Source of the DNA: Acidobacteriota bacterium
Lineage (GTDB): Bacteria; Acidobacteriota; UBA6911; RPQK01; JAJDTT01
Direction of reading: 5' to 3'
Length of the DNA: 64,000 nucleotides
Assembly: GCA_965263035.1 (NCBI GenBank)
Contig: OZ253580.1
Location: 5,024,001 to 5,088,000, forward strand
Shown: positions 3,385-37,700 of the stretch, piece by piece
Numbering within the stretch: position 1 is the first letter of the stretch
Layout of the letters: the number at the start of each line of letters is the position of its first letter
Position numbers and translations under genes: made by a program
The notes under the pieces: generated by a model
Told to the model about the DNA's origin: nothing
The model's input: the letters and a program-made list of their open reading frames with translations, nothing else
Databases searched by the model: none

Positions 3385-4263
3385 TCAAAGGGAGCGGACG
3401 TCCGCCGAGTCTCTCAGGCCGTCCCCGATGAAATTGACGGCCAGCACCGTCACGGCGATGGCGGCTCCGGGCGCCATCCAGAGCCAGGGCATCCCGGCCA
3501 GCACCGTGGGCGACTGGGCCTCGTTGAGCATTCCTCCCCAACTCGGCGTGGGAGGGGGGACTCCCAGGCCCAGAAAGCTGAGAGCCGCTTCCAGCAGGAT
3601 GGCGTTGGCGAAGCCGAAGGTGGCGATCACGCTCAGTGGGCCCACGGTGTTGGGCAGGATGTGCCGCAGGATGACGCGCGCGTGGCCGTTGCCCAGGGAA
3701 CGTGCCGCCATGATGAACTCCTTCTCCCGCAGCACCAGGACCTCTCCCCGGACGACTCTGCAGGTGCTGGACCAGCCCAGCAGCCCGATGACCAGGGTGA
3801 CCGAGGTGAGGCTGGGCCCCAGGAGCGATACGAAGAGCATCACCATGAGCAGGACCGGGATGCTCATCATGACTTCGGTGGCCCTCATGACGGCCTGATC
3901 GACGGCGCCACCTGAATATCCCGCCAGCGCACCCAGAAGCGAGCCGACCAGCGTGGAGAGGACGACTGCCAGGATTCCCACGGTCAGAGAGGTGCGGCTG
4001 CCATGGATCACCCGGCTCCAGACGTCCCGTCCGATCAGATCCGTCCCCAGCCAATGGACGGCGTCGGGCGCCTGGTTGAGACTTTCCAGTTCGATCTGGA
4101 AGGGGTCGTGCCGGCCCACCCAGGGAGCCAGGAGAGCGGCCAGGATGATGATTCCCAGGAAGACCGCGCCACCGCAGGCGAGCCGGTGGCGGAGAAATCG
4201 AGCCCAGGGTCCGGGACCCCGGCGGAGTTTCGCCGGTCTCTCTTCGTCTCGGGTCAGATCCAT
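3385..4263 (-). CDS. ABC transporter permease, DppC/OppC type
   Basis: HWLGTDLIGRDVWSRVIHGSRTSL and EFIMAARSLG (EAA loop); start MDLTRD at 4263 overlaps the end of the upstream permease. Confidence 0.92.
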   Translation of the reverse strand: MDLTRDEERPAKLRRGPGPWARFLRHRLACGGAVFLGIIILAALLAPWVGRHDPFQIELESLNQAPDAVHWLGTDLIGRDVWSRVIHGSRTSLTVGILAVVLSTLVGSLLGALAGYSGGAVDQAVMRATEVMMSIPVLLMVMLFVSLLGPSLTSVTLVIGLLGWSSTCRVVRGEVLVLREKEFIMAARSLGNGHARVILRHILPNTVGPLSVIATFGFANAILLEAALSFLGLGVPPPTPSWGGMLNEAQSPTVLAGMPWLWMAPGAAIAVTVLAVNFIGDGLRDSADVRSL

Positions 4264-5237
4264 GTTCTCTGCTTTCGGGTGAAGCGGACCCTGGGGTCGG
4301 CAATGGCGTAGGAAATATCCGCCAGCAGTGAGCTCAGAAGGACTCCGACTCCCACCACCAGGACCACTCCCATGAGCATGGAGGGGTCGCGGTCCGCAGC
4401 CGCCCGAACGGCCATGAATCCCATTCCCGGCCAAGCGAAGACCTGTTCCGTGATCACCGCTCCCACCACCACTTCCGGCAGCAGGAAGCCCAGGACGCTG
4501 ATGATGGGGATGAGGGCGTTCCTCAGGACGTGACGCAGGAACACGACCCGCTGGGACAATCCCTTGCCCCGGGCCGTCGTCACGTGATCTTCCCGCAGGA
4601 CCTCCAACAGGCTGCTCCGGGTGTGGCGCATCAGCAGGGCAGCGTTCCGCAGTCCCAGGACCGTTGCCGGGAGCACCAGGTGCCGGATCTGATCGGTCAG
4701 GTTGGGGATGGTGCCCAGGGTCGCCATGCCACCCGTCGGCAGCAGCCTCAGATGGACTCCGAACAGATAGATGGCCAACAGTCCCAGGAAGAAGGTCGGG
4801 GTCGAGATCAGGAGCATGGTCAGGGAACTGAGGGCGTAGTCCAACCGCGAATGCTGCTTGAGCGCGGCCAGGGCGCCGCAGGGGATGCCGACGACGATGC
4901 CGAAGAACAGGGCCGCGCCCATGAGCTTCAGGCTGACCGGGAGCCGTGTCCGCAGCTCGTCACCCACCGAACGGCGCGTCGCCACCGAGTAACCCAGATC
5001 CCCCTGGACCAGGCCGGTGAGCCATTTCACGTATTGGACGGGAATCGGTTGATCCAGTCCCAGCTCGCGGCGGCGCTCCTCGATCCACTCCGGCGATTGC
5101 TGGGCCAGGATGCTGGGATCGATCCGGGCCAGGATCGGGTCTCCCGGTGCCAGGGCCAACGCCGTAAAGGCGACGAAGGTGATGCCCAGCAGGACCGGGA
5201 TCGCGATGAGCAGGCGGCGGAGCAGGTAACGGCCCAT
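4254..5237 (-). CDS. ABC transporter permease, DppB/OppB type
   Basis: LGLDQPIPVQY, GDLGYS, DHVTTARGKGL, TEQVFAWPGMG. Confidence 0.93.
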   Translation of the reverse strand: MGRYLLRRLLIAIPVLLGITFVAFTALALAPGDPILARIDPSILAQQSPEWIEERRRELGLDQPIPVQYVKWLTGLVQGDLGYSVATRRSVGDELRTRLPVSLKLMGAALFFGIVVGIPCGALAALKQHSRLDYALSSLTMLLISTPTFFLGLLAIYLFGVHLRLLPTGGMATLGTIPNLTDQIRHLVLPATVLGLRNAALLMRHTRSSLLEVLREDHVTTARGKGLSQRVVFLRHVLRNALIPIISVLGFLLPEVVVGAVITEQVFAWPGMGFMAVRAAADRDPSMLMGVVLVVGVGVLLSSLLADISYAIADPRVRFTRKQRTWI

Positions 5238-5252
5238 GGAGCGCCTTCCGGG

Positions 5253-6872
5253 CTAGGGATTGAGGGTCCAAGTCTCGATGTTGCCGAATGTCCGGCGTGC
5301 GTCCTGATGCAGTTCAAACCCGCCTCCCAGCCGCTGGTGACGCGCGTGGACCTCGTCGGGCGCCCAGAGGGGCAGGAGTGGCAGGTCCCGGTTCAGCAGG
5401 CGGGCGGCCTGGAAGTAGAGGTCCCGCCGCCGTTCCGGGTCCACGGTGGCCGTCGCTTCCGCAAAATAGCGATCCAGATCGCAATTGGTATAGCCATACT
5501 GCCAGTCGGGCCGCCGGCAGTTGAAGTAGGTGGAGGTCACGTGAGGCCCGAGACCGTAGGCTCCGCCATGGCTCCCCGACATCTCGTAGGTGTCCCGCTG
5601 CTCATAGCGGCGGGCGATGAACGCCGTCGACTCCATGGCCTCCAACTGCACCCTCAGTCCCAAGGCTCTCAACTGTTGTCCGATGATGGGGTAGATCTGG
5701 GCCGCGCTGGGATAAGTCTGGTCGTAGATGAGGCGCAGCGGAGTCGCCGGGTCGAAGCCCGATGCCTTCAGCAGCCTCTTGGCCCTTTCCAGGTCATGCC
5801 CGTAGGAGTCCAGCCTCGCGTCCGGATCCATGCCGAGCGGGATCCCCTCCATGGCCTCGGCACGGCCGCGGAAGAGGGTCCGGGCGACGGCCTTCCGATC
5901 GATGGCGCAGTAGATGGCTTGGCGCAGGCGCCGGTCCTGAACCACGGGGCGGTCCAGGGCAAACCCCACCGAGATCATGCCGATGCCGGGACGGGTCGTC
6001 GTCTCCAGATGGGACAGGGCCGCCAATCGGTCATAGTCCAGTAGTTGAAGCCGCATTCCCAGGTCCAGTTCACCGCTCTCCAGTTGCGCCACCGTCACCT
6101 CGGGCCGGAGACGTTTCATGTAGACCCTGCGAATCAAGGGGGCGCCCCGGAAGTAGTCCGGGTTCGACTCCAACTCCACGTAGAGGTCCGTCAAGTATTT
6201 CACGAAGCGAAAGGGACCGGTTCCCACGGGACGAGTGGTGGTGAAAGGCGCCGACTGCACGGCGTCGGGCTCGACTCCGGCCAGGAGGTGAGACGGTATG
6301 ATCACCATGGACGGCTCGGCGAGTTTCTGCAGGAACGTGACGTCGGTTCCCCCAAGCGTGATTCGAACCGTGAAGTCGTCGATCGCCTCCAGGCCCTCGA
6401 GCCTGTCGGAGCTTCCCTCCTCATAGGCTTCCGCTCCGGCGATTTCGCCGGCGTACTTGACGTAACGGTAGGGCTCCAGGAGCTGGCGGCTGAAGCTGAA
6501 CTCCACGTCCCGGGCGGTAAAGGGTTCGCCGTCGTGCCAGCGGACGTCCCGACGCAAACGGAACGTGAAGACGCGGGCGTCGGGGGAGACCTCCCAACTC
6601 TCGGCCAAGTCGGGAAGTATGGTGGTCAGGTCCGGACCCAGACGGACCAGCTTGTTGAAGAGGAGGAAAAACATCACCGCCTGGCTGAAGGTCTCGTATC
6701 CGGACGGATGCCACATGGGCGTCAGATCTCCCTGCCACGCGAAACGGAGGCTCTCGGATCGGTCGGTGTCGCCGGCGGGATCGACTCCGGCGTCGGTGGC
6801 GGGGGCGCACGACGAGGTCCACCCCAACAGAAAGATCAGCTTGGCGAGCAGGACACGGCGGTTACGAATCAT
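5253..6872 (-). CDS. ABC transporter substrate-binding lipoprotein, SBP family 5
   Basis: lipobox-like TSSC; PDLAESWEVS, FTFRLRRDVRWHDGEPFTARDVEFS, GTGPF. Confidence 0.92.
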   Translation of the reverse strand: MIRNRRVLLAKLIFLLGWTSSCAPATDAGVDPAGDTDRSESLRFAWQGDLTPMWHPSGYETFSQAVMFFLLFNKLVRLGPDLTTILPDLAESWEVSPDARVFTFRLRRDVRWHDGEPFTARDVEFSFSRQLLEPYRYVKYAGEIAGAEAYEEGSSDRLEGLEAIDDFTVRITLGGTDVTFLQKLAEPSMVIIPSHLLAGVEPDAVQSAPFTTTRPVGTGPFRFVKYLTDLYVELESNPDYFRGAPLIRRVYMKRLRPEVTVAQLESGELDLGMRLQLLDYDRLAALSHLETTTRPGIGMISVGFALDRPVVQDRRLRQAIYCAIDRKAVARTLFRGRAEAMEGIPLGMDPDARLDSYGHDLERAKRLLKASGFDPATPLRLIYDQTYPSAAQIYPIIGQQLRALGLRVQLEAMESTAFIARRYEQRDTYEMSGSHGGAYGLGPHVTSTYFNCRRPDWQYGYTNCDLDRYFAEATATVDPERRRDLYFQAARLLNRDLPLLPLWAPDEVHARHQRLGGGFELHQDARRTFGNIETWTLNP

Positions 6873-8004
6873 CGGGGCGTGGAGAACCGTCTCCTGCGGT
6901 CGTGCTGTAGAAGGTGGACCCGTCGGGATTCTGCCATTGGAACGGGGGCCTCATCTCCCGATCCTCCAACGGCAGCCGGACCTTGACGTTGCCTCTGCGG
7001 GAGGAGTCGTGGGTCGCCAGGATCAGTTCCAGGGCATTGCGGGCCGTGGTTCCGTTGGAGAGGGGCTCGCCGCCTTGTTCCACCGCCGCCAGCAGGTCTT
7101 CCAGCAGGTAAACCATGGGCGCGGTGTGGCGCATCATCTGGGGGAAAGGGTGCTCCAGGAGCTCCCGGAACACGCTCCCGGGATTGGTCTTCCAGAGCCG
7201 AACCGCGGTGGTTTCGATGCTGAGCACGCCCCGGGTCCCGTTGACCTCGACCCGGTAGCCGGCGTGACTGTCCCGGCCGTTGAAGAAGGCGCGGATCCCG
7301 TTCGGGTAGACGGCATAGGTGGTGCCGCCGAGATCCTGGCCCCGCTGGGTGGGAATGGCGACCATGGATGCTTCCGGGTCCTCGGAGTGCCCCACGATCC
7401 AGGAAGGGGGAGAGTCACCGGCCAGGTAGTTCACCAGATCGAACCAGTGGGTTCCGGAGAGGAAGAGGCGTCCGGGCCAGGTGGCGACGATGCTGAGGAC
7501 CTCTCCGATGCCCCCCTCATCCAAGAGCCGCCGTGTGCGCAGGATCAGGGGATCGCCTCTGCGGGTGTGGTTGACGGCCAGGCGAGTGCCGCTCTCGCGG
7601 CAAGACGCGATCATCCGGTCGGCCAGCGCCAGATTCGTGGTGAAAGGCTTCTCGCAGAAAATGCCCTGGACTCCGCTCCGGGCGCAGTCTTCGACCTGGG
7701 AGGCGTGGAAATCGGGGGGACTGGCGATGGCGACGATCTCGGGCCGCTCGGCTTCGAGCATCTCGCGGTGGTCCGAATAGAGGGCGTCGACTCCCCATCG
7801 TTTCCCGAAGTCCTCCAGCCGACCCCGGTCCGGGTCCGCCCCCGCCACCAGCCGGGTCCGAGGATGGGTCTTCAGGATTTCCGCATGTCCGTAGGGAAGC
7901 AGGATTCGGCCCGTCGCGTCCTGGAGCTCGTCCATGCAGTAGCTGCCCATGGAGCCGCAACCGATGAGGGCGGCGCGATAGATTTTGCCGGGGTCGTACA
8001 CCAT
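6862..8004 (-). CDS. Gfo/Idh/MocA family oxidoreductase
   Basis: IGCGSMG Rossmann motif, CEKP, GTHWFD. Confidence 0.9.
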   Translation of the reverse strand: MVYDPGKIYRAALIGCGSMGSYCMDELQDATGRILLPYGHAEILKTHPRTRLVAGADPDRGRLEDFGKRWGVDALYSDHREMLEAERPEIVAIASPPDFHASQVEDCARSGVQGIFCEKPFTTNLALADRMIASCRESGTRLAVNHTRRGDPLILRTRRLLDEGGIGEVLSIVATWPGRLFLSGTHWFDLVNYLAGDSPPSWIVGHSEDPEASMVAIPTQRGQDLGGTTYAVYPNGIRAFFNGRDSHAGYRVEVNGTRGVLSIETTAVRLWKTNPGSVFRELLEHPFPQMMRHTAPMVYLLEDLLAAVEQGGEPLSNGTTARNALELILATHDSSRRGNVKVRLPLEDREMRPPFQWQNPDGSTFYSTTAGDGSPRPDDS

Positions 8005-8233
8005 GTTCGTCGTGCTCGTTCCGTGAGAGGAGAAGCGTCCTTCTCAGGGCGCACCATCATATTGGATCGTGGTCCGCTTCGCGAGCACCGCCAGGAGACC
8101 CCGGCCCTTCCGGGTTCCCTCCACCGCGCATGTTGACCGGGCTCCGGAGGTTGGATATGTTTCGCTGCAAGGATCGGTTGAAGTTCTGCCTCGAGGGTTC
8201 GGAAAAGATTCAGGTAATTCAGGAGATAATAAG

Positions 8234-9595
8234 TTGCAAATAACGAATAATAAAGAGAATAAAAGAATATTGGGTCAGAAGATGTACGACCGGGCCCGGG
8301 AGCTCATCCCCGGTGCGACGCAGCTTTACGGAAAGCGCCAGGAAATGACCGCTCCGGGGCAGTGGCCGGCATACTTCGCCCAGGCCCAGGGCTGCGAGAC
8401 CGTGGACGTGGATGGAAACCACTACCTCGACATGTCCATGGCCGGCATTGGCGCCACTCTCCTGGGATATGCTGATCCCGACGTGACCGAGGCGGTCATC
8501 CGGCGGGTGCGCAACGGTTGCATGTCTTCCTTGAATCCCCCCGATGAGGTGGAGTTGGCCGAACTGATGCTGGAACTCCACCCTTGGGCTCAGATGGTGC
8601 GGTTCGGGCGGCTTGGCGGAGAGAGCATGACCATCGCGGTGCGGATCGCCCGGGCCTATACCGGGCGGGACGCGGTGGCCTTCTGCGGCTACCACGGATG
8701 GCACGACTGGTACCTGGCCGCCAATCTTCCCGTCGACCGTAGCGAGGAGACGGTGGACCGGTTGGGCGGGGGTCACCTGATGCCGGGGCTGGAGCCGGCA
8801 GGCGTGCCCAGCGGACTGGCCGGCACGGCCATGCCGTTCACCTACAACAAGATCGAGGAGCTCCGAGCCATCGTGGACCGGCACGGCCCGAGACTGGCCG
8901 CCATCGTGATGGAGCCGACGCGCAACTACGACCCCGATCCCGGCTTTCTGGAGGAGATCCGGGAACTCGCCACCCGTTGCGGCGCCTGCCTGATCATGGA
9001 TGAGATCACCATCGGCTGGAGGCTCTGGCTGGGAGGCGCCCACCTCAAGTACGGGTTGGAGCCGGACCTGGCCGTGTTCGCCAAGACCACCGGGAACGGG
9101 CATCCCATCTCCGCGGTGGTGGGCCGGCGCGAGATCATGCAGGCGGCCCAGAACAGCTTCATCTCCAGCGCGCTCTGGACGGAGGCGGTGGGCCCCACGG
9201 CCGCCCTGGCCACCATCCGCAAGTTTCAGAGGGAGGACGTTCGCTCACACGTGGCTCGGATCGGGGAAGCGGCCAGACAGGGCCTGAAGGAGTTGGGAGA
9301 CCGGTGCGGTGTTCCCTTCGGCGCCACCGGTCATCCGGCCCTCACCTTTTATCACTTCGACCACCCCCAAGCGGCGGCTCTCCAGACTCTTTGGACCGTG
9401 CGCATGCTGGACCGGGGATTCCTCGTGGCCGGCGGCTTCTATCCCACTTTTGCCCACCAGGAGACGCACGTGGAGCAGTTCCTGGAGGCCTGCGAGCCGG
9501 TGTTCCAAGAATTGGCTGAGGCAATTCAGAAGGGAGATATCGAGCCGCGAATCGGCGGCCCGGTGAAACACACCGGGTTCCGCCGGCTGGTGTAA
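8234..9595 (+). CDS. class III PLP aminotransferase (glutamate-1-semialdehyde aminomutase-like)
   Basis: DVDGNHYLD, GYHGWHDW, LIMDEITIGWR, PDLAVFAKTTGNG; AGGAG at 8221-8225 before TTG 8234 (alternative ATG 8282). Confidence 0.85.
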   Translation: MQITNNKENKRILGQKMYDRARELIPGATQLYGKRQEMTAPGQWPAYFAQAQGCETVDVDGNHYLDMSMAGIGATLLGYADPDVTEAVIRRVRNGCMSSLNPPDEVELAELMLELHPWAQMVRFGRLGGESMTIAVRIARAYTGRDAVAFCGYHGWHDWYLAANLPVDRSEETVDRLGGGHLMPGLEPAGVPSGLAGTAMPFTYNKIEELRAIVDRHGPRLAAIVMEPTRNYDPDPGFLEEIRELATRCGACLIMDEITIGWRLWLGGAHLKYGLEPDLAVFAKTTGNGHPISAVVGRREIMQAAQNSFISSALWTEAVGPTAALATIRKFQREDVRSHVARIGEAARQGLKELGDRCGVPFGATGHPALTFYHFDHPQAAALQTLWTVRMLDRGFLVAGGFYPTFAHQETHVEQFLEACEPVFQELAEAIQKGDIEPRIGGPVKHTGFRRLV

Positions 9596-23135: not shown

Positions 23136-25601
23136 GACTGCCCTATACCCACAAATAGTGCTGGACAAACAAGAATGCCTGTCGTAGTCTTCACGACATG
23201 GTAGTTCAGAACCAGATCAAGCGCACCTTGAGCCGAGAGTTGGATCGTTTGCACGCCGTGATGAGGCGGGAGAAGTTCGCCCACCGGACGGCGCTGGCGG
23301 ACCGGGTCTGCTCGGAGTTTGGATTTCACGATGCCCGAGGGCGGGCGCAACGGAGCGGCTGCCTGAAGGCGCTCCGGGAGCTGGAGGCGGGCGGACGGAT
23401 TCGTCTGCCGACGCCGCGACGGCGGGTGAACCATTGCGGGCCCCGAGGACTGGGCCGTGCGGTGCCGGAGCCGGTGGAAGTGCCCGAGACGGTGGACGGC
23501 GTGCGGGAGCTGGAGTTGATTCTGGTGGAGACGGGTCCGCAACGAGCGCTCTGGAACGAGTTGATGGCGCGAGAGCATCCACGGGGCGCGGGGCCGTTGG
23601 TGGGTGCTCAACTACGCTATCTGGTGGGCTCGGCCCACGGCTGGCTGGGGGGCTTGGGGTTCGGGGCGGCGGCGTTGCGGTTGCGGGACCGGGACCGCTG
23701 GATCGGATGGGATGAGGAACAACGCCGGGCGCACCTGCACCGGGTGGTGGGGCTGAGCCGGTTTCTGATCCGTCCGTCAGTGAGGTGTCGTAATCTGGCC
23801 TCCCGGGTGCTGGGGGAGGTGTTGCGGCGGCTGGGTCCGGAGTTCCAGGCGCGCTACGGCTACCGTCCCTGGCTGGTGGAGACCTTCGTGGAGACGGCTC
23901 GCCACGATGGGGCCAGTTTGCGCGCCACGAACTGGAGGGTTCTGGGGCAGACGCAGGGTCGAGGCCGGCAAGATCGGGCGCACCGGGGTGCGGAGACGAG
24001 CAAGGCGATCTATGGGTATGAGTTGTGCCGGGATTGGCGTCGGCGGTTGGGGGTGGGACCGGCGCCGAGGCGGGGAGTGGAACCGATGTCGGAGGGCGAG
24101 GGACTGGAGGGAGAGGGCTGGGCTCAGCAGGAGTTGGGCGGGGCGCCGCTGGGAGACCGGCGCTTGAGTCGGCGACTGGTGGAGAGTGCGCACCGTCAGG
24201 CGCAGGAGCCGGGGCGGGCGTTCACGGGAGTGGCGCGGGGCGATCCGGCGGCGGTCAAGGGATACTACCGGCTGATCGACCAGCCGGAAGCCTCGGCGGT
24301 GACGGTGTCCAACATCCTGGCCCCGCACCGGGAGCGGACCCGGCAGCGGATGCAGGGGCAGCGGACGGTGCTGTGCATCCAGGACGGGAGCGATCTGAAC
24401 TTCACGCGGCACGGCCGGTGTGAGGGACTGGGGGTGATCGGGCGCAACCAGACGGGAGCGACGGCGCGGGGACTGCATCTGCACGCGACGCTGGTGGTGA
24501 GTGAGACGGGGCTGCCGCTGGGGGTGTTGCGGGCGAAGCTGGACGCGCCGAAGCCGGGACCGGTGGCCACGCGGAAAAAGAAGAAGACGTATCGCTGGAT
24601 CGAGGGACTTCGGGACTGCGCCGAGGTGTCGCGGTCCCTCGACGGGGTGCGGGTGGTCAGCGTGGTGGACCGGGAGGCGGATTTTTTCGCACTGTTCGCC
24701 GAGCAACGAGCGTCTCCGGAGGTGGAGTTGCTGGTGCGTGCGAAGCAGGATCGGGTGCTGAAGAGGAAGACCCCGGCGAAGGCGGCCGGGAAAAGCGCGG
24801 ATCCGGACCCGGAGCAGAAGCGGAAGCTGTTCGGGCGCCTGCGATCGGCGCCGGTGCGGGCCCGGATGCTGCTGGAGGTGAAGCGTCAGAGTGCGCGGAT
24901 CAAGGCCAGCAAGCAGGCGGCCCGCCCGCGGCGGCTGGCGCGGGTGGCTCGGATGGAACTGCGCTACGAGACCCTGACGATTCCGGCGCCGCGCGGGAAC
25001 CCAACCGGCATCCCGTCGCTGAGACTGTCGGTGGTGCACGCGCGGGAGGTCGCGCCGCCGGCGCAGGGGAAGCGCCTGGAATGGTTCCTGCTCACCACCC
25101 TGCCGGTGACCGATGTCGAGACGGCGCAGCAACTGCTGAGATGGTATGCGCTGCGCTGGCGGGTGGAGGATTATTTCCGGGTGCTCAAGACCGGATGCCG
25201 GGTACAACAGCTCCAGCACCAAACCGCCGAACGTCTGAAACGGGCCATCGCCATGCACGCCGTCATCGCCTGGCGGATCATGCTGATGACGCTGTTGGGG
25301 CGAGAGGACCCGGACCTGCCGGCGCAATTGTTGTTCTCGGATCTGGAAATTCGGGTCCTGGGGGCGTTTGCCGCGTCGCGAGGATTCCCAGCGCCGGAAG
25401 ACCTGGGGGCGGCCGTGCTCGTGCTGGCCCGCCTGGGAGGATATCTGGCTCGTAAACACGACTCCCCACCTGGGCATCAACTGATGTGGCAGGGCTACGT
25501 CACGCTCTACGGCATGTGTCTGGGCTTCGCTTTACGAGAAGAAACATGAATGAAACCGGACGGCTAATTTGCCCTGTGCAATATGTGGGTAAAGGGCAGT
25601 C
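23136..25601 (+). mobile_element. IS4-family (IS50/Tn5-like) insertion sequence
   Basis: TIRs GACTGCCCTATACCCACA / TGTGGGTAAAGGGCAGTC; flanked by CTAG at 23132-23135 and 25602-25605; exact tip could be 2 bp further in. Confidence 0.85.
23198..25549 (+). CDS. IS4/Tn5-like DDE transposase with N-terminal DUF4338 domain
   Basis: N-part GAQLRYLV, SRFLIRP, NLASRVL, LVETFV; C-part LGDRRLSRRL, IQDGS, DREAD, YALRWRVEDYFRVLKTGC (YREK), ARLGGYL. Confidence 0.9.
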   Translation: MVVQNQIKRTLSRELDRLHAVMRREKFAHRTALADRVCSEFGFHDARGRAQRSGCLKALRELEAGGRIRLPTPRRRVNHCGPRGLGRAVPEPVEVPETVDGVRELELILVETGPQRALWNELMAREHPRGAGPLVGAQLRYLVGSAHGWLGGLGFGAAALRLRDRDRWIGWDEEQRRAHLHRVVGLSRFLIRPSVRCRNLASRVLGEVLRRLGPEFQARYGYRPWLVETFVETARHDGASLRATNWRVLGQTQGRGRQDRAHRGAETSKAIYGYELCRDWRRRLGVGPAPRRGVEPMSEGEGLEGEGWAQQELGGAPLGDRRLSRRLVESAHRQAQEPGRAFTGVARGDPAAVKGYYRLIDQPEASAVTVSNILAPHRERTRQRMQGQRTVLCIQDGSDLNFTRHGRCEGLGVIGRNQTGATARGLHLHATLVVSETGLPLGVLRAKLDAPKPGPVATRKKKKTYRWIEGLRDCAEVSRSLDGVRVVSVVDREADFFALFAEQRASPEVELLVRAKQDRVLKRKTPAKAAGKSADPDPEQKRKLFGRLRSAPVRARMLLEVKRQSARIKASKQAARPRRLARVARMELRYETLTIPAPRGNPTGIPSLRLSVVHAREVAPPAQGKRLEWFLLTTLPVTDVETAQQLLRWYALRWRVEDYFRVLKTGCRVQQLQHQTAERLKRAIAMHAVIAWRIMLMTLLGREDPDLPAQLLFSDLEIRVLGAFAASRGFPAPEDLGAAVLVLARLGGYLARKHDSPPGHQLMWQGYVTLYGMCLGFALREET

Positions 25602-27017: not shown

Positions 27018-30000
27018 ATGAGCCTTCCAGACATCAATTTCGAGAAAATTCGTCCGTTTGACGGAAGCCGTCACGCAGGGTTCGAGGAAATGTGTTGCCA
27101 ACTCGTCTATTTGGAACCAGCATCCTCGGGCAAAACTTTCCACAGGAAAGGCCACGGTGGCGACGCAGGCGTCGAATGCTACCGTCGGCGTGCAGACGGG
27201 ACGGAAGTGGGATGGCAGGCCAAATATCTCTTTCACTGGAATGACGGTCTCAAGGCGCAGCTCGACAATTCGATACGCACGGCATTGGATAAGCACCCGC
27301 ATCTCGTTGAGTACGTCGTCTGCCTTCCGTTCAATCTTTCCGATTCTCGAACCGGCAAGGGCAAGACCGCACGAACGAAGTGGGACACTTGGTGCACGAA
27401 ATGGGAGGAGTTCACCGCTACGCAGCAGCGTCACCTGACAATCACTTTGTGGGGCAAGAGCGAATTCAGCGCTCGGTTGGCTCGCGAAGACCCCGCCTAC
27501 TCCGGTCGACTTCTCTATTGGTTCGGGACCGAAGCTGTCACGTCAGCTTGGTTCAATGAGAAGTTTGGAACGGCAAGGGCGTCTCTGGGCAGCCGATACA
27601 CTCCCGAGACAAACGTCGAACTCCCAATTCGACAGGACTTTGTCGCCTTCGCCCGCCATCCTGAGCTTCAGCGGCAGATTGACGGGTGGCTATTCCGGGT
27701 CACCAAGAAAGGAAGCGATGCCGTAGATGCCATACGCAGGACGGGTTCGGAGGCAGCCGAAATCTATTCCGAGCCTCTGGCCGAGGCAATTCGTGCTCTG
27801 ACGTCTTTACTTGACGGGGATCCAATCGGTCCCGACCAACCCTATCCTGTAGACGATTGGACGTCCGAAGTATCAAGCTGTCTCAATCTTGCCAGAAAGG
27901 CCCTTCGCTGGTCCTACGACCTTCCGCCTTCCAAGCCCGGACGCATGGGGATCAGGCCCGAACAGCAAGCGCAACATACCCTTCATGAGCTGATGGAAGT
28001 ATTGCATGAAATCAAGAGGGCTCTCGCTTCGAACCGTTGGCGACTGACCAACGCGAAGGCGGTTCTGTTACAGGGCCCGGCCGGCATCGGTAAGTCCCAT
28101 TTGCTTGCCGACATCGTGGAGCACCATCTTCACGAAGGTGGTCCGGCGCTGCTCCTTCTTGGAGGTGAGTTTGTCGACAATGCGCTGTGGCCGCAGATTC
28201 GCGACCAACTCGATTGCCCACCAACGGAGCAGTTCAAGCACTTCCTCGGGAGTCTGGACGCAGCAGCGCAGGCCGTGGGCATGAGAGCAATTGTGTGCAT
28301 CGATGCTCTGAACGAACGCAACGGCATTGATGTCTGGCCGGATCGTCTCTTAGGCTTCCTCAATAGTATCGAGGCTTTCCCGCGAGTCGGCGTAATCGTG
28401 TCATGCCGCTCGACCTATGTTCGGTATGTGATCCCGGATGACCTGGATGAAGATCGGCTCTTCCTTGTTGTTCACGAAGGCTTTGCCGCGGATGGCGGAG
28501 AAGCTGCGAGGGTCTATCTCGACAAACGAGGAATGGTTCGACCTGGGGCACCTAATCTCGTTCCCGAGTTTGAAAATCCGCTTTTCTTGAAGACGTGCTG
28601 CGACTCCCTGCAAAAGGAGGGGAAAACCGAATTCCCTAAAGGTCTACGCGGCGCCACATCGATCTTCGAGTTTTATTACGAGGCAGTGACTCGATCGTTG
28701 AACCGGCGAATGAAGCTTGATCCTAATCTGGAGATCGTGCCGCAAGCAATCACAGGCTTTGCGCAATTGCTGGTGGGAGCCGGCGAGGGATATGCCCGGA
28801 AGCGCGATGCAGTTGATTTATTTGAATCAGTCCTCGCCTCGAGCGGAAGCCTTGAAAAGAGTCTGCTAGCCTGCATTTCTCAGTGCGCCGTGGAAAGGCG
28901 CTGTTTCTCAGTGGGTGCGAATCCCACCCGGCAACTGTCGCTCCAGCCGGTAGCAGTCGGAGCGGTTCATAGAGGCAACGATATGGACTGAAGCACTCCG
29001 ATGTCAAAGGGTCGCTTTAGGCGACTCAGCGAGTCCGCAGGCCGCAACATGTGAACGCTGAGCAGGCCTCGAAACGGGTAATGCGGAAGCCGACCCGCCT
29101 GAGAAACGCACGAAGGCTGCCAGCGGTCGGGAAGCGAGCGACGCAAGCACCGGCCGGCTCCGCCGGGGTAATGGCGGTGGCATGTGGACAAGAGGGAGAC
29201 AGCAGCAACACGGGAAGCCCCGCCGGTGGCGTGGCACGCGTCAACCGGGAACCCGTGAGGGCCAGCCTGGGCCGTCGGGGTGGCGGAGAGGCCCGTAGTA
29301 CTGGAGAAGCCGGGTAACGCCGGTGGAGGGAAGGGGCCTTGGTTCGAGAACCGCGTTGGACGGGGAAAAGGACGTGAAGACTGGTGAGAACCTAGTAGCT
29401 TCAGAGAAAGTTCAGAGACTCCGGAAGACGCTCCATGCGAGCATCGAAGGAGGCTCCGGGCTTCCGGTTCTACTCGCTGTGCGACAAGGTGTGGCGGTTG
29501 GACGTGCTCCGTGTGGCCTGGCAGGAGGTCCGCCGCAACGGCGGGTCGGCCGGGGTGGACGGGGAGGCGATCGCCGACATCGAGTCGTCGGGGGTGGACG
29601 GGTGGCTCGGGGAACTGGCGCGGGACCTGAAGGAAGGGACCTACCGGCCCAACGCGGTGCGGCAGGTTCTGATCCCGAAGAAGCAACGCGGGAAGTTCCG
29701 GCCTTTGGGCATTCCGTGTGTGCGGGATCGGGTGGCGCAGACGGCGGCAATGTTGGTGTTGTCGCCGATCTTCGAAGCCGATCTGGCCCCGGAACAATAT
29801 GCCTATCGGCCGGGCCGGAGCGCGGGCGATGCCGTCAAGCACGTGCACCGACTGCTGAACCGGGGCCACCGCGAGGTGGTGGACGCCGACCTGACGGACT
29901 ACTTCGGCCAGATCCCCCATGCCCAACTGATCAAGTCCGTGGCCCGCCGCATCAGTGATGGGCGGGTGGTGGGTTGGATCAAGGCTTGGTTGGAGATGGC

Positions 30001-30087
30001 GGTGGAGGAAGAGGACGGCTGCGGCGGACGACGCCGAACGACCCGGGCGCGGCAAGAGAGGAAAGGGACCCCGCAAGGGGCGCCCAT

Positions 30088-31747
30088 TACGCCCCCAACG
30101 CAAAAGGCAACTTTGGGAAAAAGGGCTCGGCTGCGACGAATTCGGAGCCAGTTTGCCGGGCGAGGAACCGCCCGCTTCCGTCACCGGTATCGAATGGCGA
30201 ATCGTGATCTCCCCGTCGTCCACCAGGACTTCCTTCACCAGTGCGCGTAGCACCTTCTGCCGCTCCCTGACCCCCAGCGTCCCGGCGCCGGCCCGCAACC
30301 GTTCCCGGAAACTCTCCAGCGTCTCGGCGACCCGCAGGTGCCGCTCCCGTTCCTCGACGGCGCTCTCGACCGCTTCCAGTTCGGCCTCCACCGCCTGCGT
30401 CCGACTCCGTAGCGGCGGCATCCGCCGGCGCAACTCGTCCAGCCCGATCAATTCCTCCTGGTATGCCGTCACCAGCCGGGCGCCCGCTCGTTCCAACCGC
30501 TTCCGCTCCCCTCGCAGTTCCGCCACCCGCCGCTGTCGCGGATCCGTCCGGCGCCCCGCCTCCAGCCGACGCTCCAGCTCGGCCTCCAGTAGCGCCGGAT
30601 CTTCCAGCAACCTCACCAACTCGCCCCACACCACCGCGTCCAGCCGGTCCTGGCGCACCGGCCGGCTCGCGCAACGCGCGCCCCCCTCGTAGCGCCAGCC
30701 GTCCGTGCCCAGGCAGCGGTAGTAGTACAGCTTCCGCTTCGTCGTCCGCGTCGACGCCCGGTAGTACGCATATCCGCAGCGCCGGCACACCAACATGCCC
30801 TGCAGCAGCGTCGGCTCCTTCGTCCGTCGCGTTGAATGCCGCTTGTTCGCCTCCAACTGCTCGCGCGCCTGCTCGAACCGCTCCGCGCTCACCAGCGCCG
30901 GAACCGGGATCTCGATCCACTCCTCCCTCGGCCGCTCTTGCCCGGCCACCCGGCGGCTCGCGTATTTCCCCGGCCTCCGCAAGGGCCGCGTCACCCTCTG
31001 CCTCTCGCCGGTCCCGGTCTTGCCGTAACCGGCCCGCCCGGAGTAGGCCGGATTGCGCAGCATGGCCCAGATCACCGAGCGGTCCCAGCGTTGCTTGCCG
31101 GTCCGCGTCGGAATCCCCTGCTCCGTCAGCCGGCGCGCGATCTCCCCGATGCTGCAGGGATCCTGCGCATACCAGTCGAACACCTGCCGCACCACCTCCG
31201 CTTCCCGCGCCAAGACCTCGTAGCGCGCCTCCATTCCTTCGCTCCGCTTCACGTACCGGTACCCGTACGGCGCTCCCGAGAGCACGCTCGGCGAACCCTG
31301 GCGCGCCTTGTAGCGCTTGCCCCGCCGGCTGCGCTCCATGATTTGCGCCCGCTCGTACTCGGCGATCATGCCCTGCACCTGCACCAGCAGGCGCTGCTGG
31401 GGCGTCTCCGCCGCCGGCGTCTGCACGAACTCGCACGCCACCCCGCTCCGCTCGAACTCCTCCAGCAACAGCACCTGGTAGGCGTACTTGCGGCTGAGCC
31501 GGTCCGGCGACAGCACCAGCACCGCCTCGAGGCGCCCCTCCGCGGCCAGGTCGCGCACGGCCTCCAGGCCGGGCCGGTCCAGGCGCGCCCCGCTGAAGCC
31601 GTCGTCCTCGAACACCCACTCAGGCGGGACGACGTAACCGCGCTTGCAGGCGCGCTCTCGAAGGGCGGCCGTCTGGCTGGCGATCGTCCCGCTCTCCTTC
31701 TGGCGGTCCGAGGACACTCGGGCGTAGATGGCGGCGACTCTGGCCAT
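30088..31747 (-). CDS. large serine recombinase (resolvase + recombinase + zinc ribbon + coiled coil); no stop inside the element, frame continues to 28967
   Basis: YARVSS catalytic Ser, DDGFSGA, RPGLEA, SPDRLSR, MIAEYER, PYGY, LRNPAYSG, CRRCG...YYRC. Confidence 0.93.
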
Positions 31748-31889
31748 GGTTCAAGTCCTCCTCTCGCGCGAGCCGGACCGGCTGCTGCCGGACGGGGGCG
31801 AGTCGTTCGTAGGCGCCGGCCAGCCGGTCGGGCAGATGGCGGTCGAAGCGGTACTCGAAATGCACCGCCAACGGCCCATCCTCAGCCAT
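31620..31889 (-). CDS. small protein of the LSR element, overlapping the LSR start (candidate directionality factor)
   Basis: ATG overlaps the end of the upstream regulator; lies inside element boundaries; function inferred from position only. Confidence 0.45.
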   Translation of the reverse strand: MAEDGPLAVHFEYRFDRHLPDRLAGAYERLAPVRQQPVRLAREEDLNHGQSRRHLRPSVLGPPEGERDDRQPDGRPSRARLQARLRRPA

Positions 31890-32211
31890 GCGGCTCCCGG
31901 GAGGCGAGCCAAGCGCGCAGGGCCCGCGCCACCACTTCGCTGACGGCGGTGCCCGTCGCGGCCGAACGCTCCCGCAAGCGTCGGATCAGGCCGCGCGGCA
32001 ACCGTACGGAGAGCACTTGCTTGCCTTCGGAAACCGGAACCGGCTGCGTCAGCCGCTGGGCTTCGCGCAGGTAGCGATAGGCTTGGCGGGAGGAGAGCCC
32101 GAGCTGGGCGGAGAGCCGTTTGACGGCATGGGGCAGGTCGGGGGAGTCCTGCAGCAGAGAGCGGGCCAGATTGAGCCGCTCGGCCTTGCCGGCTTGGGTG
32201 ACACGCCCCAT
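31882..32211 (-). CDS. HTH + ribbon-helix-helix (CopG-like) DNA-binding protein of the LSR element
   Basis: LSAQLGLSSRQAYRYL HTH-like segment, then VLSVRLPRGLIRRLRERSAATGTAVSEVVARAL RHH pattern. Confidence 0.7.
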   Translation of the reverse strand: MGRVTQAGKAERLNLARSLLQDSPDLPHAVKRLSAQLGLSSRQAYRYLREAQRLTQPVPVSEGKQVLSVRLPRGLIRRLRERSAATGTAVSEVVARALRAWLASREPHG

Positions 32212-32220
32212 ATGACATAT

Positions 32221-32249
32221 AATATATACAGTACATGACTAGTAGTCAA
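32221..32249 (-). promoter_or_regulatory. sigma70 promoter of the LSR element with overlapping palindrome
   Basis: minus strand TTGACT-N17-TATATT, 9 nt before ATG 32211; TGACT-ACT-AGTCA palindrome overlaps -35. Confidence 0.7.
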
Positions 32250-33348
32250 CCCTTCCGACTGTACTTGCAGACGCGGTCAAACACGAAGTTACCTTTTGTG
32301 TTGGTGGAGTGCTCTCACCGCTGCTGAGCAACTTGTACATGCGACGCTTCATTCTGGGCTGGAAGGGACTGGGCTACGCTCGGCGCTTCAAGGCGGAAAT
32401 CGTCAACTACGCAGACGACTTTGTGGTCCTGGGCCAAGCTCCGGCCGCGATCATGCGGACGGCGGTCGAGGATCTGGTGAAGCGTCTGAAGCTGGCGTTG
32501 AACGCGGAGAAGACCCGAGAGGTGCGGGTGCCGGAGGAACCGCTGGAGTTCCTCGGCTACCGGATCGGGCGCAACTACCGCCGGGATACGGGGCGAGCCT
32601 ACATTGGGACGCGCCCGAGCCCGGCGAGCGTTCAGAGCCTCTGCCGCAGGGTGAGCGCGTTGACCGAGAGACGCTATGGACTCCTGGAACCCGAGCGAGT
32701 CGTGGGACGCCTCAACCGGCTTCTGAACGGTTGGGCGAACTACTTCTCGTTGGGTCAGGTGAGTCCCGCTTATGCGACGATCGATCGGCACGCGACCCGG
32801 CGGCTGCGCCAGTGGCTGAGCCGCAAGCACAAGGTGAGGGCCGGGAAGACGGTGCGCTTCCCGGACGAGCGACTCTGGAAGGAGTGGGAGCTCACTCGTC
32901 TTGGTCCGCGAACGGCCAGCTTTCCGTGGGCGCGCGTATGATCTCGTCCGAGAGCCGGATGCGTTAGTAGCGCACGTCCGGTTCGATGAGCGGGGAGAGG
33001 AAACGGGGTCACGGTGGAGATTGAGGCACCGGCATGAGGGCGAAAGCCGCCGGCAACAGCGACTCCCTTCGACCTACGGCCGTCGCGCCTCTCCTCGACT
33101 CTACTCAGTAGAACAATAAACGGAAGTTGAACCGTCGTCTGGGTGATTCTTTATCCATACGAGTTCAAGAGGCAGTTTTCGTGCTCGAACGTGCCGACCA
33201 ACGGCCAGATGCAGCGCTTCTCCAGAGCCTTTTGACGCCCATCCTGCGCTTCTGAGCGACGACTCTCGACCCGGTGCCCACTCCGGGGCGCAGTCCATCC
33301 TGGGGACTCCCAAGTCGCCATCGTCCAAAGAGTTCTTTCCATCCGTTG

Positions 33349-34761
33349 CTAACAGCGAAGCGGGAGGGCTTGCACTTGCGTCAGAGCCGTCCTCAACAGC
33401 GCCGCATACGGATAGCTCTCGGAAAAGGACAACCAGACCTTGCGGCTGGTGATTCGGACCTGTGCCCCGATCTTCAGCAATCTCACCCGCAGGGTCCAGC
33501 TCTGCGCCCGCGCCAGCTTCGTCCCCGCCAGTCCCACCCGTCGCAACGTCTCCATCATCACGTAGGCGAACGCCGAGAAATACAACCGCAGTTGATTCCC
33601 CGCCAGCTTCCGGGTCGACGTGCGGTCCGCAAACAGACCCAGCTGCTGTTCCTTTATCCGATTCTCCATGTCTCCCCGCGCGCAGTAGACCTCCTCGTAC
33701 AATCTGCGCCCATCGCATTCCTGGACCGGGACCGAAGTCACGATGAATCGCGGGTTCTTTCCCCGGGGCAGGTGCTCCACCTTCGCCACCACCCGACGCT
33801 CGCACGACCACGTGTCCCGCGTCTGGTAGCGTAGTTCCTGGAACTGCCTCACGGCCTTGCCCATCGCCTGCTGCAACTTCCGGACGGTCTCCATCCGGGT
33901 CGCGATCCTCCGCTTCAGCCGATCGTTCTGCGCCAACCCCAGGACGTAATCGATCCCTTCCTTCTCGCACCAGACCATCAACTCGTCGTTGGAGAAGGCA
34001 CTGTCCCCTCGAACCGTGATCCGGACCTGGGGCCACGCTTCACGCAGCCGCCTCACGATCGGTTCCAACTCCGCCACCACCCCGTGGGCCGCGCCTCGAT
34101 CCGCCGTGCGCAGCCGCGCACACAACAGATGTTCCCCACAGAAGACGTACAGCGGCAGGTAGCAGTAGCGTTTGTAATAGCCGTGGAAGAACCGTCCCTC
34201 CTGCTTCCCATGCAGCGGATCGTCCGTGGCGTCTACATCCAGGATCACCTCCTCCGGGGGCTCCGGATGCGCTTCCACAAACACCTCCAGCAGCAGCTCG
34301 TCCATCCCCGCCGGGTCGGCCACGATCTTCTTGTACGCGCCCTCCGGTCCCTCCAACGGAGTCCGCTCCAGTCGGTTCAGGGTGCTCTTGCCTGCCAGCG
34401 GCTTGCCTCGATCCGACTCCACGCGCCGGAACTCCCCCGTCAGATCATCTCGATCACACAACAGCGCCAAGAGCCGGTCCCGGCACAACTCGTCGTGGTC
34501 GTTGAGGTCCTCGTAGCCCAGGCACAGCCCCAGCACCCGCTGTTTGATCAACGCCTCCACCGGGTGTTCGACTCGATCCGAGTCTCGATAGTCGGTGAAG
34601 CATTCGCTCAGACGACCCAGAATCCGGGTCCGCTGCTCCACTTCGCGCAGGAGCACGCCACCGGCGTCGGAGGTGATCTCGCCGCCGTCGAACCGGCCCA
34701 CGACATCCCGTCCGTCCAGGCCCTGAAATCTGAGCTTTGTTCTGGTACACTCTGCGGTCAT
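33349..34761 (-). CDS. IS1380-family transposase
   Basis: FDGGEITSDAG, GYEDLNDH, LDVDATDDPLHGKQEG, RGDSAF, YCARGDMENRIKE. Confidence 0.95.
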   Translation of the reverse strand: MTAECTRTKLRFQGLDGRDVVGRFDGGEITSDAGGVLLREVEQRTRILGRLSECFTDYRDSDRVEHPVEALIKQRVLGLCLGYEDLNDHDELCRDRLLALLCDRDDLTGEFRRVESDRGKPLAGKSTLNRLERTPLEGPEGAYKKIVADPAGMDELLLEVFVEAHPEPPEEVILDVDATDDPLHGKQEGRFFHGYYKRYCYLPLYVFCGEHLLCARLRTADRGAAHGVVAELEPIVRRLREAWPQVRITVRGDSAFSNDELMVWCEKEGIDYVLGLAQNDRLKRRIATRMETVRKLQQAMGKAVRQFQELRYQTRDTWSCERRVVAKVEHLPRGKNPRFIVTSVPVQECDGRRLYEEVYCARGDMENRIKEQQLGLFADRTSTRKLAGNQLRLYFSAFAYVMMETLRRVGLAGTKLARAQSWTLRVRLLKIGAQVRITSRKVWLSFSESYPYAALLRTALTQVQALPLRC

Positions 34762-37700
34762 AAGGTCGCGTCCCTTCTGCTTTGTAAGTTATTGATTACA
34801 CAACACTTATAGCAGAATACGCGGCCTTTATCAATCTTTCTGTTGAGATATCCGGGCTAGCGCAGCTGGAAAGCGAAGGTCTTCTCACCGTCGAACCCTT
34901 GCGGCAGGATGACGGATCGCTTGCTGAAATGGTTCGCTTCACCTTCGAGCGTTTCAGCGATCATGCTATAGCCTCGCGTTTGCTCGATGACCACCTCAAT
35001 ACCAACGATGTGGCTAGTTCCTTTCGAGCCGGGCAGCCTCTCCATAATTGTGTTTTTGGGTCGAAAAATTATGAACGCGCCGGAATCATCGAAGCGGTGG
35101 CCATTCAACTCCCGGAACGGACCGGCGCTGAGATATTGGATGTTGGATCTGAGACTTCGTATACAGTGCAGGAAGCTTTTCTGGATAGCCTTCTCTGGCG
35201 TGAGCAGTCTCAATTCACAGATCGCACGTTCGAACTGGTTCGAGGCTTGATGCAGACGGACGAGTTGAACGACCTGCTAATCTCAATCACCACCGAGCCA
35301 TCCAACAAATTCAATGCGGTCTTCGTCCATGAGCGGCTCATGAAAATGACGATGCCGGAACGCGATGCACGTTGGTCGGTCTACTTGGCACTGCGTGGCT
35401 TCGACGGGCCTGTCGAGACATTGATTTCCTGGGCGCTTCACAATGATCTCAAGCACATGGACCAGGATCGTGCGTACCTGGCTGCGACAATGCTCACTTG
35501 GTTCCTCACCACGTCGCATCGAGAGGTCAGGGATAAGGGCACCAAGGCCCTTGCCAGCGTGTTGAGCCGGCGGCTTCCACTTGCGGCTCGTTTGCTGGGG
35601 GACTTCGTGAGTGTGAATGATCTCTACGTTCTTGAGCGTCTGTTGGCTGCTTGCTACGGTGCCGCTCTTCAAGGAAAGGGGGAAGCGGGGCTCGGAAAAC
35701 TCGCCCAAGTGGTTTTCGACACGATCTTTGCCAGCGGGAGACCACCGGCACACGCGCTTCTACGCGACCATGCCCAAGGCATTGTTGAGTACGCAGCGTG
35801 GTGCGGCGTACTGAATAACTCAATCGACCTTGCGCTTGCACGTCCGCCATTTCAAAGTCCCTGGCCTATCGAAACGGTACCGGACGAATTGATCGATAGT
35901 TATACCGAGGATCGTGGGCGCGGAGCCGTTGGTGACGCGATTGTCTTCTCCACCGTCCATGAGGGCGACTTTGCACGGTATGTAGTTGATCCGAAAGTAG
36001 GCAGGTGGAGCCCCGCAAAACTCGGGACAACGCCGGTTCCGACTTCGCTCGACATTTGCAGAATCTGGATGCAGGAATTTATTGCCAATGCAACTGAAGA
36101 CCAACGGGAGGCCTTTAACGCGTACGTTGTCGCTGCCGAGGGTGTCGAGGATTTACAGGGCCATCAGTCCAGTCCAGAGACGGAACGGTTGGCCTCCGCC
36201 GAGATTGCCCTTCAGCAAACGATGACGTCGGACCAATGGGAAGACTTTCGAGTTCGAGCAAAGGACTTCATCTGCCGGATATTCTCCACGGATCACTTCC
36301 AAAAACGGACCGCGCACTTCGACGTCCATTGGGGTCGTAGATGGATCTGCAAGCGAGCCCATGAACTCGGTTGGACATCGGAACGCTTTGGAGATTTCGA
36401 CAATCGTTCCCAAGGCTACGGCCGGAACGACCACAAGGTCGAACGCATCGGCAAGAAATACCAATGGCTCGCGCTCCACGAACTTATCGCCCGCATGGGA
36501 GACAATCTGGCTTCCTTAGGTAATCACTGGTCAGAAGAAAATGACGAATTGCCGCTATATCAAGGAGCCCGTGAGGTCGGATTACGCGATATCGATCCGT
36601 CCTTCTTGACCACTCAGACCCATTACGACGGCTGGGGCGAGTGGGGCAGAACGTGGTGGGTCCCTTTCAATCCTCAATTTCGCGCGATGGCTCCTCACGA
36701 GCGTTTTGCCTGGCTGCAAAGCGACCGCGATATCATCAACGACAGAGCTCTGATCGATTTACGTAATCCAAAGACAGGCCGCAGGTGGCTGGCCCTCTCT
36801 GGATCTTCGGGTTGGAAGGGTGGTGGCATACGGGATGGGAAGAAGGAGTTTCAGCGTGAGACGTGGTTTCGTCTCACCTGCATCGTTGTTCACCGCGAGG
36901 ATCAAACGAAGATGGTCGAGAGCCTCCGAGACAAGATTCTGACAAATCCTGGCTCATTTCCACAGATCGAACTTGATTCTCACCACTATTACCTTGGTGA
37001 ATATCATTGGCGCCCTGAGATTAGTGAGTTCGACCGCTGGAGTTCGCACGATGATTGGCAGGCTTTCGCCGTGCCAATACGCCCGACGGTCGCCTCCTAC
37101 GTGTGCGAGAGCGGGGGCTATGACCTCTCGATCGATCGGACGACTAGAGTAAAAATCCCTGTCCCCTGGCTGTCCAAGGAAATGGGGCTTCGGCTGTCGA
37201 GTGGGAGATCTTTGATTCTTGTCAACTCAGACGGGCGAGACACATTCTATGATCCGTCCGTTGTCGAATCTGGCCCCGCTGCGGCCCTTGTTGATTACGA
37301 CGACTTCCTTCAGGTTCTCAATCAGAAAGATCTTTCTGCAATCTGGGTGATCGCCGGTGAAAAGAGCGCCTACGGTGGGAGTACCGTAGGCTCAGGGTTT
37401 GGTGGCCGCTTGCATCACACTACGATCTATCGCCTTGACGGGGATGTCTTTACACCGTACCTCTACAAGGATCGGATACATCCGACCGAGCGTCAGCTTG
37501 AGATATTTTTCGGAGATGACCCCGTACCTCCTGGGATTGCTACTCGGACTGTGGTCTCGGAGACTTGACCCTCGGCGAAGCGGTCGTTGTTACAAAGAGA
37601 TCGTGAAGGTGCGGCATGCGAGTCTCATTCCGTCGGGTGAGGCGGTGAGCTTATCCCGCATTTTCCTCCACGCCGCTGAGCGTATGAGGACGAAGACCTT

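Follow-up and report, generated by a model that had tools for sequence, protein, structure and literature searches.

How does one defence gene come to be interrupted by an insertion sequence (IS), itself interrupted by a group II intron, which in turn holds a small element built around a large serine recombinase (LSR)? The question is raised by a 64-kb stretch of an Acidobacteriota genome, bases 5,024,001-5,088,000 of a closed, single-contig 6.198-Mb sequence; the whole of this stretch is called the window here. The four-layer nest that it contains (an Avs2 gene, an IS1380-family IS, a group II intron and an LSR element, from the outside inwards) is real, and its boundaries are resolved to the base. 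Since removal of any layer restores a sequence that is present uninterrupted elsewhere, the junctions lie far beyond chance. The nest was very probably made by three successive insertions, with the intron and the LSR element each specialised on its carrier and the IS not. A sequence-only reading of the window had described the order of nesting and the clean peeling of the layers, and all four were found where it had placed them, with small coordinate corrections. The three nested chemistries that it had named are also there: a DDE transposase, a group II intron with its reverse transcriptase (RT)/maturase, and a large serine recombinase. The components are as follows, with positions counted from the first base of the window.

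27018..28869, plus strand: N-terminal part of Avs2, 617 codons and 1 base, with an effector-like N region and a P-loop NTPase
28866..28869, no strand: left target duplication CTAG, read in the sequence
28870..28882, minus strand: outer 13 nt of the IS, the tip downstream of the transposase gene, also the putative 5' exon recognition sequence of the intron (intron-binding sites IBS2-IBS1)
28883..30087, plus strand: 5' segment of the intron, with ribozyme domains I-III, the N-terminal part of the RT (ATG at 29435) and a candidate exon-binding site 1 (EBS1) at 29100-29106
30088..32312, minus strand: LSR mini-element of 2225 bp, single copy in the genome, with terminal inverted repeats of about 20-25 nt
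30088..31747, minus strand: gene for a large serine recombinase, assigned by Pfam domains, with 553 codons within the element and no stop there
31882..32211, minus strand: small gene of 109 amino acids upstream of the LSR gene, with a helix-turn-helix-like N part and a ribbon-helix-helix C part
32221..32249, minus strand: site resembling a promoter (TTGACT, 17 nt, TATATT), within the element and ahead of the small gene
32313..33104, plus strand: 3' segment of the intron, with the C-terminal part of the RT, the maturase domain (stop at 32939-32941) and domains V-VI
33105..34856, minus strand: body of the IS with an intact 470-amino-acid transposase gene (34761 to 33349), assigned by profile matches
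34857..34860, no strand: right target duplication CTAG, read in the sequence
34861..37568, plus strand: C-terminal part of Avs2, the sensor region, with the frame open to the stop codon

The outermost layer is the disrupted anti-phage gene of the earlier reading, which can be named more precisely as Avs2 from the PADLOC profile matches of both halves. The open reading frame (ORF) at 27018-28991 and the one that ends at 37568 are the halves of one gene. The PADLOC profile for Avs2 (PDLC02164) is matched by 27018-28868 over profile positions 2-613 (711 bits, E 9e-214) and by 34863-37568 over positions 615-1499 of 1504 (982.5 bits, E 1e-295); matches to AAA_16/NACHT P-loop domains at residues 345-394 of the N part stay under the cut-off. 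Joined, 27018-28869 and 34861-37568 make a stop-free frame of 4560 nt and 1519 codons, the length given in the earlier reading, and the junction peptide noted there was reproduced. The block that it had removed, 28870-34860, does restore the gene, but the IS proper spans 28870-34856, and 34857-34860 is target duplication.

The restored frame exists in nature. In genome G029, from the same order and another family, the N and C parts abut directly, with 85-88% identity to the window gene; its Avs2 is an intact ORF of 1499 amino acids, and the protein is 78% identical to the joined window frame. Contigs from three public sequencing runs (X16, X18 and X1) carry a near-identical Avs2 (at least 97% likeness) and join 28864 directly to 34856, whereas in run X15 the gene is not uninterrupted. 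Among 40 other relatives' genomes, G029 has the only full-length match; none of eight genomes of the same genus has one, G008 having only a match of 32 nt. The G+C content is 0.621 for the genome, 0.53-0.57 for the Avs2 segments and up to 0.74 for the inserted block. The low G+C of Avs2 and the missing full-length match in same-genus genomes suggest that the gene was acquired by horizontal transfer. The IS would have transposed into a CTAG within it, duplicating these 4 bp and cutting the 1519-codon frame after codon 617. The split gene is presumably inactive, in which case this strain has lost an Avs2 defence gene of which sister populations keep an intact copy.

The second layer reads, from left to right, CTAG, the 13-nt tip, the intron, 33105-34856 and CTAG again, so that the IS without its guest has a length of 1765 bp. 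Its transposase scores 387 bits against the NCBIfam IS1380 profile NF033539 (cut-off 180) and 496.9 bits against PF13701, and its terminal repeats are imperfect, with both tips starting with CC. Full-length copies of the IS number 14 in the genome, with identities of 97.3-100% (97.3-98.8% for the 13 others), and two partial copies are 94% identical. A 4-bp direct repeat flanks all 14. In 12 of them the tip is intact, that is, the same 13 nt adjoin the equivalent of position 33105, and the matching repeats are CTAG (8 copies), CTAT (2), CTAA (1) and TTAG (1). Ten copies are near-identical, and a recent burst of the IS is indicated. The target preference therefore goes no further than YTAR, and there is no sign that the IS was directed at Avs2. 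The proposal that every element targets the parasite before it thus falls for this step, with 12 other copies in unrelated places and Avs2 being a host gene; as set out below, it stands for the intron (7 of 7 copies at an IS1380-type tip) and for the LSR element (47 of 80 loci in the RT block).

Could the nest instead be an artefact, a chimera assembled from repeated IS and intron copies? Repeats abound, with 14 full-length copies of the IS and four of the intron, and among the contigs listed for the public runs none spans the whole nest. The genome, on the other hand, is closed in a single 6.2-Mb contig, it is precisely this IS copy that the 4-bp duplication flanks, and removal of the IS restores a frame that matches the intact orthologue base for base. 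The window IS copy also combines its variants in a way of its own, two other copies sharing them only in part, and has 0 private differences. The public runs X1, X15, X16 and X18 were covered through short-word contigs. At both ends of the unique LSR element, contigs of X15 continue into the intron (30058-31072 and 31682-32342), and word depths in this run, about 10 for the LSR element and about 33-35 for the intron, fit one copy and four copies, respectively. The target duplication, together with the exact restoration of each carrier, argues strongly against a chimera, and misassembly is an extremely improbable explanation.

Intermediate states of the nest were also found, as the earlier reading had proposed searching for them. 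Besides the empty gene, there are 12 IS copies without the intron, one IS copy with the intron and no LSR element, and two further LSR-free copies of the intron. Every state of this chain of parasite on parasite on parasite is thus available together, the empty gene coming from relatives. With all states side by side, the order of events and the target rules can be read and tested directly.

What, then, brought the intron to the IS? The intron (28883-33104) begins with GTGCG and ends with CTAC, and its 5' region matches the Rfam family group-II-D1D4-4 (RF02003) at 28909-29052 with 92 bits (gathering threshold 49). The two halves of the window RT match positions 3-184 and 187-353 of the TIGR04416 profile. 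Three uninterrupted copies (B, C and D) of 1996-1998 bp lie elsewhere in the genome; identity to them is 98.5-99.6% for the 5' segment of the window intron and 99.4-99.7% for the 3' segment. Their RT has 426 amino acids with the RVT_1 and maturase domains (116.5 bits for RVT_1 and 58.4 bits for GIIM in copy B), nothing beyond and no endonuclease domain. Contigs of runs X1, X16 and X15 differ from the window at 33006-33084, where 25 other letters replace 77 nt between domains V and VI; this replacement is a variant intron lineage in those samples.

All copies examined share one feature of their setting. Copy D (C1:981742-985505, L083), which has no LSR element, interrupts another copy of the window IS at exactly the same base. 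For copy B the carrier is a different IS1380-family IS, entered 13 nt inside its tip and with the start of its transposase gene 283 nt downstream; copy C comes after a similar 13-nt tip, near which there is no transposase. Two sister species add three full-length copies at about 92% identity, each placed after CC and an 11-nt tip, two of them preceded by CTAG/TTAG. An IS1380-type tip thus precedes all seven full-length copies examined in this genome and the two sister species, and the conclusion that the intron is specialised on the IS1380-family tip holds on these sequences. The intron contains a single 7-mer complementary to the last 7 exon bases, at 29100-29106, which we infer to be EBS1; no convincing complement to tip bases -13 to -8, as expected of EBS2, was found in the intron.

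On the strength of this single complementary 7-mer, the exon-binding sites would read the IS tip. The intron would have reverse-spliced, 13 nt inside this tip, into the strand that carries Avs2. That the intron is mobile is likewise inferred from its four copies, 98.5-99.7% identical and all at tip-like sites. The inserted intron splits the terminal repeat of the IS, and the window copy is probably immobilised by it. No usable signal of a replication-strand bias emerged: with fork direction taken from cumulative GC skew (minimum near 2.87 Mb, maximum near 5.54 Mb), about 3 of the 4 intron copies and 7 of the 12 empty IS sites were fork-co-directional by hand reading.

The carriers of the other copies have features of their own. 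The IS around copy D has a variant tip that perfectly mirrors the other end, 23 private differences and a shifted transposase frame that continues into the intron (552 amino acids). Copy B belongs to a second nest (C1:5536892-5542634; 3393-9134 of locus L081), in which it and its different IS1380-family IS are followed by a 94% variant of the window IS; the transposase of the carrier of copy B matches only positions 3-336 of a profile of 435.

The innermost layer raises the same question of target choice. The match of the uninterrupted introns to the window breaks off after 30087 and picks up again at 32313, one base being shared, which sets the insert at 2225 bp. A terminal inverted repeat of 25 nt (30089-30113 and 32286-32310) is 84% complementary. 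The recombinase has the Pfam domains Resolvase (109.7 bits), Recombinase (80.3) and Zn_ribbon_recom (41.5), all above their cut-offs. The small protein matches RHH_1 over residues 67-103 (21.2 bits, cut-off 20.5) and is a candidate regulator or directionality factor. The promoter-like site in front of its gene has 10 of 12 consensus matches, and the region holds two such sites against 0.2 expected from shuffles.

The element cuts the RT gene between GTPQGAP and (I/L)SPLLSN. It would have entered by conservative serine recombination at the first two bases of an Ile/Val/Leu codon at this PQG../SPLL boundary. The recombinase frame does not end within the element: it leaves it and runs for 373 more codons on the antisense strand of the intron, to 28967, which gives 926 amino acids in total. 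The last conserved residues of the recombinase are encoded in the terminal repeat, and in a circular permutation with the 2-nt core present once the frame closes at 561 amino acids. With no stop in the element and the last conserved residues in its repeat, a proper end of the LSR exists only on the joined circle (561 amino acids), and the integrated form would carry a junk tail (926 amino acids in all here).

Is this insertion a single event or the habit of a family? A search with the LSR protein gave at least 8000 matches, of which the best 120 are at least 59% identical; these 120 range from 546 to 827 amino acids and differ in their read-out tails only. A YxRVSSDRQ block that includes the serine is invariant in all 17 aligned members. 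Family counts given here refer to the best 80 loci, taken from a scan of one genome per species in which 583 of 600 matched stretches were confirmed. The loci come from Acidobacteriota, Alpha-, Gamma- and Deltaproteobacteria, Gemmatimonadota and Verrucomicrobiota, with Bryobacterales (Acidobacteriota) genomes as the nearest named relatives of the window locus. The elements measure 2.19-2.30 kb, with ends YCTTTTGYGT...GGNGT, and 77 of the 80 loci have a homologue of the small gene in the same place and on the same strand. The window element fits this pattern in its size, its terminal repeats, its pair of small gene and LSR gene and its PQG../SPLL insertion.

The flanks of these loci point to one target. 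In many of them, a tblastn search with the RT of this genome gave RT halves that stop near residue 232 or begin near residue 230, at the ends of the element. One flank of the PQG type and one of the SPLL type were found in 47 of the 80 loci (the LSR gene in RT sense in 29, antisense in 18). Both flanks were of the same RT type in 4 loci, the single readable end was of RT type in 10, one flank was of RT type and one other in 5, and no RT-type flank was found in 14 (both flanks other in 7, ends missing or short in 7). At least one PQG- or SPLL-type flank is thus present in 66 of 80 loci, and the conclusion that the family is specialised on the conserved PQG..|..SPLL block of group II intron RT genes holds at the sequence level. 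Read in RT sense, the central dinucleotide has the form NT and makes up positions 1 and 2 of the Ile/Val/Leu codon; both junctions share it in 30 of the 47 two-sided loci, and its second base is alike in 42. The codons for QGG and SPL are mutually complementary, and the RT site therefore has a built-in dyad symmetry, which would fit insertion in either orientation.

Some loci depart from the common pattern. Within one metagenome-assembled genome, loci L007 and L008 hold the same LSR element with swapped RT flanks; within another pair from one metagenome-assembled genome, L038 and L039, the same element has one flank shared and the other different. These patterns suggest inversion or recombination between copies. 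The loci with both flanks of the PQG type or both of the SPLL type (L020, L023, L046 and L062) may be rearrangements between inverted copies or assembly chimeras of short contigs. A sub-group (L058, L071, L073 and L078) has different ends and inner repeat bases, a TA or AA core and another shared type of flank, on which a Pfam search gave no match.

Evidence that the element is mobile now, or was until recently, comes from three proteins with 100% identity across the 553 LSR residues, each with a tail of its own: one reads into the antisense of the intron, one into its sense strand in a shifted frame and one into the antisense of another RT. Runs X16 and X18 likewise have the same LSR element flanked by different RT sequence. 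A search of 40 relatives' genomes gave no close copies, and distant matches only (67-76% in nucleotides) in five of them.

These observations bear on whether the two inner layers arrived separately. The LSR element may already have been part of the intron that entered the IS; a 4.2-kb composite would then have retrohomed whole, with RT supplied in trans by the three intact sister copies of the intron. A protein identical in all 553 LSR residues, P0001 (which stands for a cluster of 31 sequences), continues into the antisense of this intron, so an intron-LSR composite does exist elsewhere. The genome also has three RT-competent copies of the intron, 98-100% identical in protein, and the ribozyme parts of the window intron are 99.6-99.7% identical to copy B. 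The junction codon of P0001, however, is Lys and that of the window is Asn, hence a different central dinucleotide, which fits either a separate insertion or a change made later. This genome has a single composite copy, and X16 and X18, by placing the element in a different RT, show it moving by itself. Whole-composite retrohoming seems unlikely, and three separate insertions remain the preferred account.

A different alternative is that the element is a domesticated, host-controlled switch, like the sigK or fdxN excision elements, that keeps the intron RT off until it is excised. The best NCBIfam match of the LSR is XisF, the excision recombinase of the fdxN element, and conservative excision would restore the RT frame, since the crossover point coincides with positions 1 and 2 of an Ile/Val/Leu codon. 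The XisF score is nevertheless far under its cut-off (111.6 against 375); the family is multi-copy and occurs in both orientations in many unrelated introns and phyla, sometimes in ordinary genes, and identical copies lie at different sites. A host switch is thus highly improbable here, and by its sequence record the LSR family is best described as behaving as a transposon.

Taken one step further, the three insertions can be read as a chain of target-specialised parasitism, three levels deep in a host immune gene, in which each inner parasite disables the mobility function of its carrier. We lean towards this reading, with some reserve. Under it, an intron lineage without an endonuclease would live on the terminal repeats of IS1380-family elements and disable each IS copy that it enters. 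Minimal serine-recombinase transposons, widespread and apparently undescribed, would in turn live on the conserved RT block of group II introns, with the dyad symmetry of the RT coding DNA serving as their attachment site. With their crossover placed at the first two, wobble-tolerant bases of an Ile/Val/Leu codon, mismatched cores and excision scars would be neutral to the RT, and the recombinase would be properly ended in the circular form only.

Several observations weigh against parts of this account. On the side of the outer layers, the halves of Avs2, scored separately against the NCBIfam profile NF041813, reach 313.8 and 616.3 bits, a sum below the whole-protein cut-off of 1000 bits. The match of domains V-VI to RF00029 at 32950-33104 has 35.2 bits, below the gathering threshold of 40 (E 7e-4, over the full length of the model); the matched sequence is common to the uninterrupted copies of the intron. 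The genome also has 12 perfect homing sites without the intron. For the junctions, the X15 pieces enter the intron by 30 letters only, one under the bridging criterion.

For the LSR family, the 14 loci without an RT-type flank stand outside the target rule, some of them in MacB/FtsX, CheB-CheR, tyrosine integrase and TruB genes. The central dinucleotide differs between the two junctions in 17 of the 47 two-sided loci, and in the window as well, where it is AT on the left and CT on the right. Canonical (phage) serine integrases are not known to tolerate differing central dinucleotides. The AT/CT pattern would follow from ligation of a core with one mismatch and its later resolution by replication. 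Finally, no circle junction of the LSR element is listed in the contigs of the public runs, which is uninformative, contigs dropping rare forms.

Closely upstream of Avs2 lies a plus-strand ORF of 783 amino acids (23198-25549) with a DruA (Druantia) domain (109 bits). The same ORF also has the DNA-binding, DDE and dimerisation domains of Tn5-type transposases.

The LSR mini-element combines a short, conserved and naturally symmetric site with occurrence in many phyla and a size of about 2.2 kb, which makes it a candidate compact integration tool and a candidate natural antagonist of group II introns. Full-text literature searches found no published description of LSR elements in intron RT genes. 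The main text of the LSR-discovery preprint of Durrant et al. (10.1101/2021.11.05.467528) contains neither 'reverse transcriptase' nor 'intron' (0 occurrences each); its supplements may list such attB sites.

How does each layer compare with known systems? For the intron, the known parallel is RmInt1 of Sinorhizobium meliloti, described as retrohoming into the insertion sequence ISRm2011-2 (PMC1802570). The target here differs in being the terminal 13 nt of at least two different IS1380-family elements. The preference for the IS1380 tip would provide, after RmInt1, a second example of an IS-dwelling intron and a possible natural brake on IS expansion. The IS itself shares with the IS1380 family its transposase, its 4-bp target duplication and its imperfect, CC-starting terminal repeats; the window copy differs in having one terminal repeat split by the intron and is otherwise ordinary. 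The outer gene has in common with the AVAST type 2 (Avs2) STAND NTPases the profile coverage, from 2 to 1499 of 1504, and an intact orthologue of 1499 amino acids. It differs in being interrupted by the IS, and its defence role is a predicted one.

Among systems moved by a large serine recombinase, the clostridial transposons Tn4451/Tn4453 (TnpX) and Tn5397 (TndX) come first. The window element resembles these in having one LSR as its sole recombinase, in its implied circular intermediate and in its presumed insertion at a short central dinucleotide within sites similar to the joined ends. In both cases the state of the recombinase gene depends on the circle: in Tn4451 a promoter is formed on it, and in the window element the frame would close on it. 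The window element differs in its size of 2.2 kb without cargo, theirs being several kb with resistance or conjugation genes. It also differs in the C-terminus of its LSR, encoded by the terminal repeat, and in its family's targeting of one coding block of intron RT genes in either orientation. The second comparison is with serine-integrase prophages and excision elements such as that of XisF/fdxN (NF041201). The Resolvase, Recombinase and zinc ribbon domains are shared with these, and so is precise, frame-restoring insertion within a coding sequence. In contrast to them, the window LSR stays at 111.6 against the XisF cut-off of 375, and its family is multi-copy, free of phage genes, spread over many phyla and directed at a mobile element.

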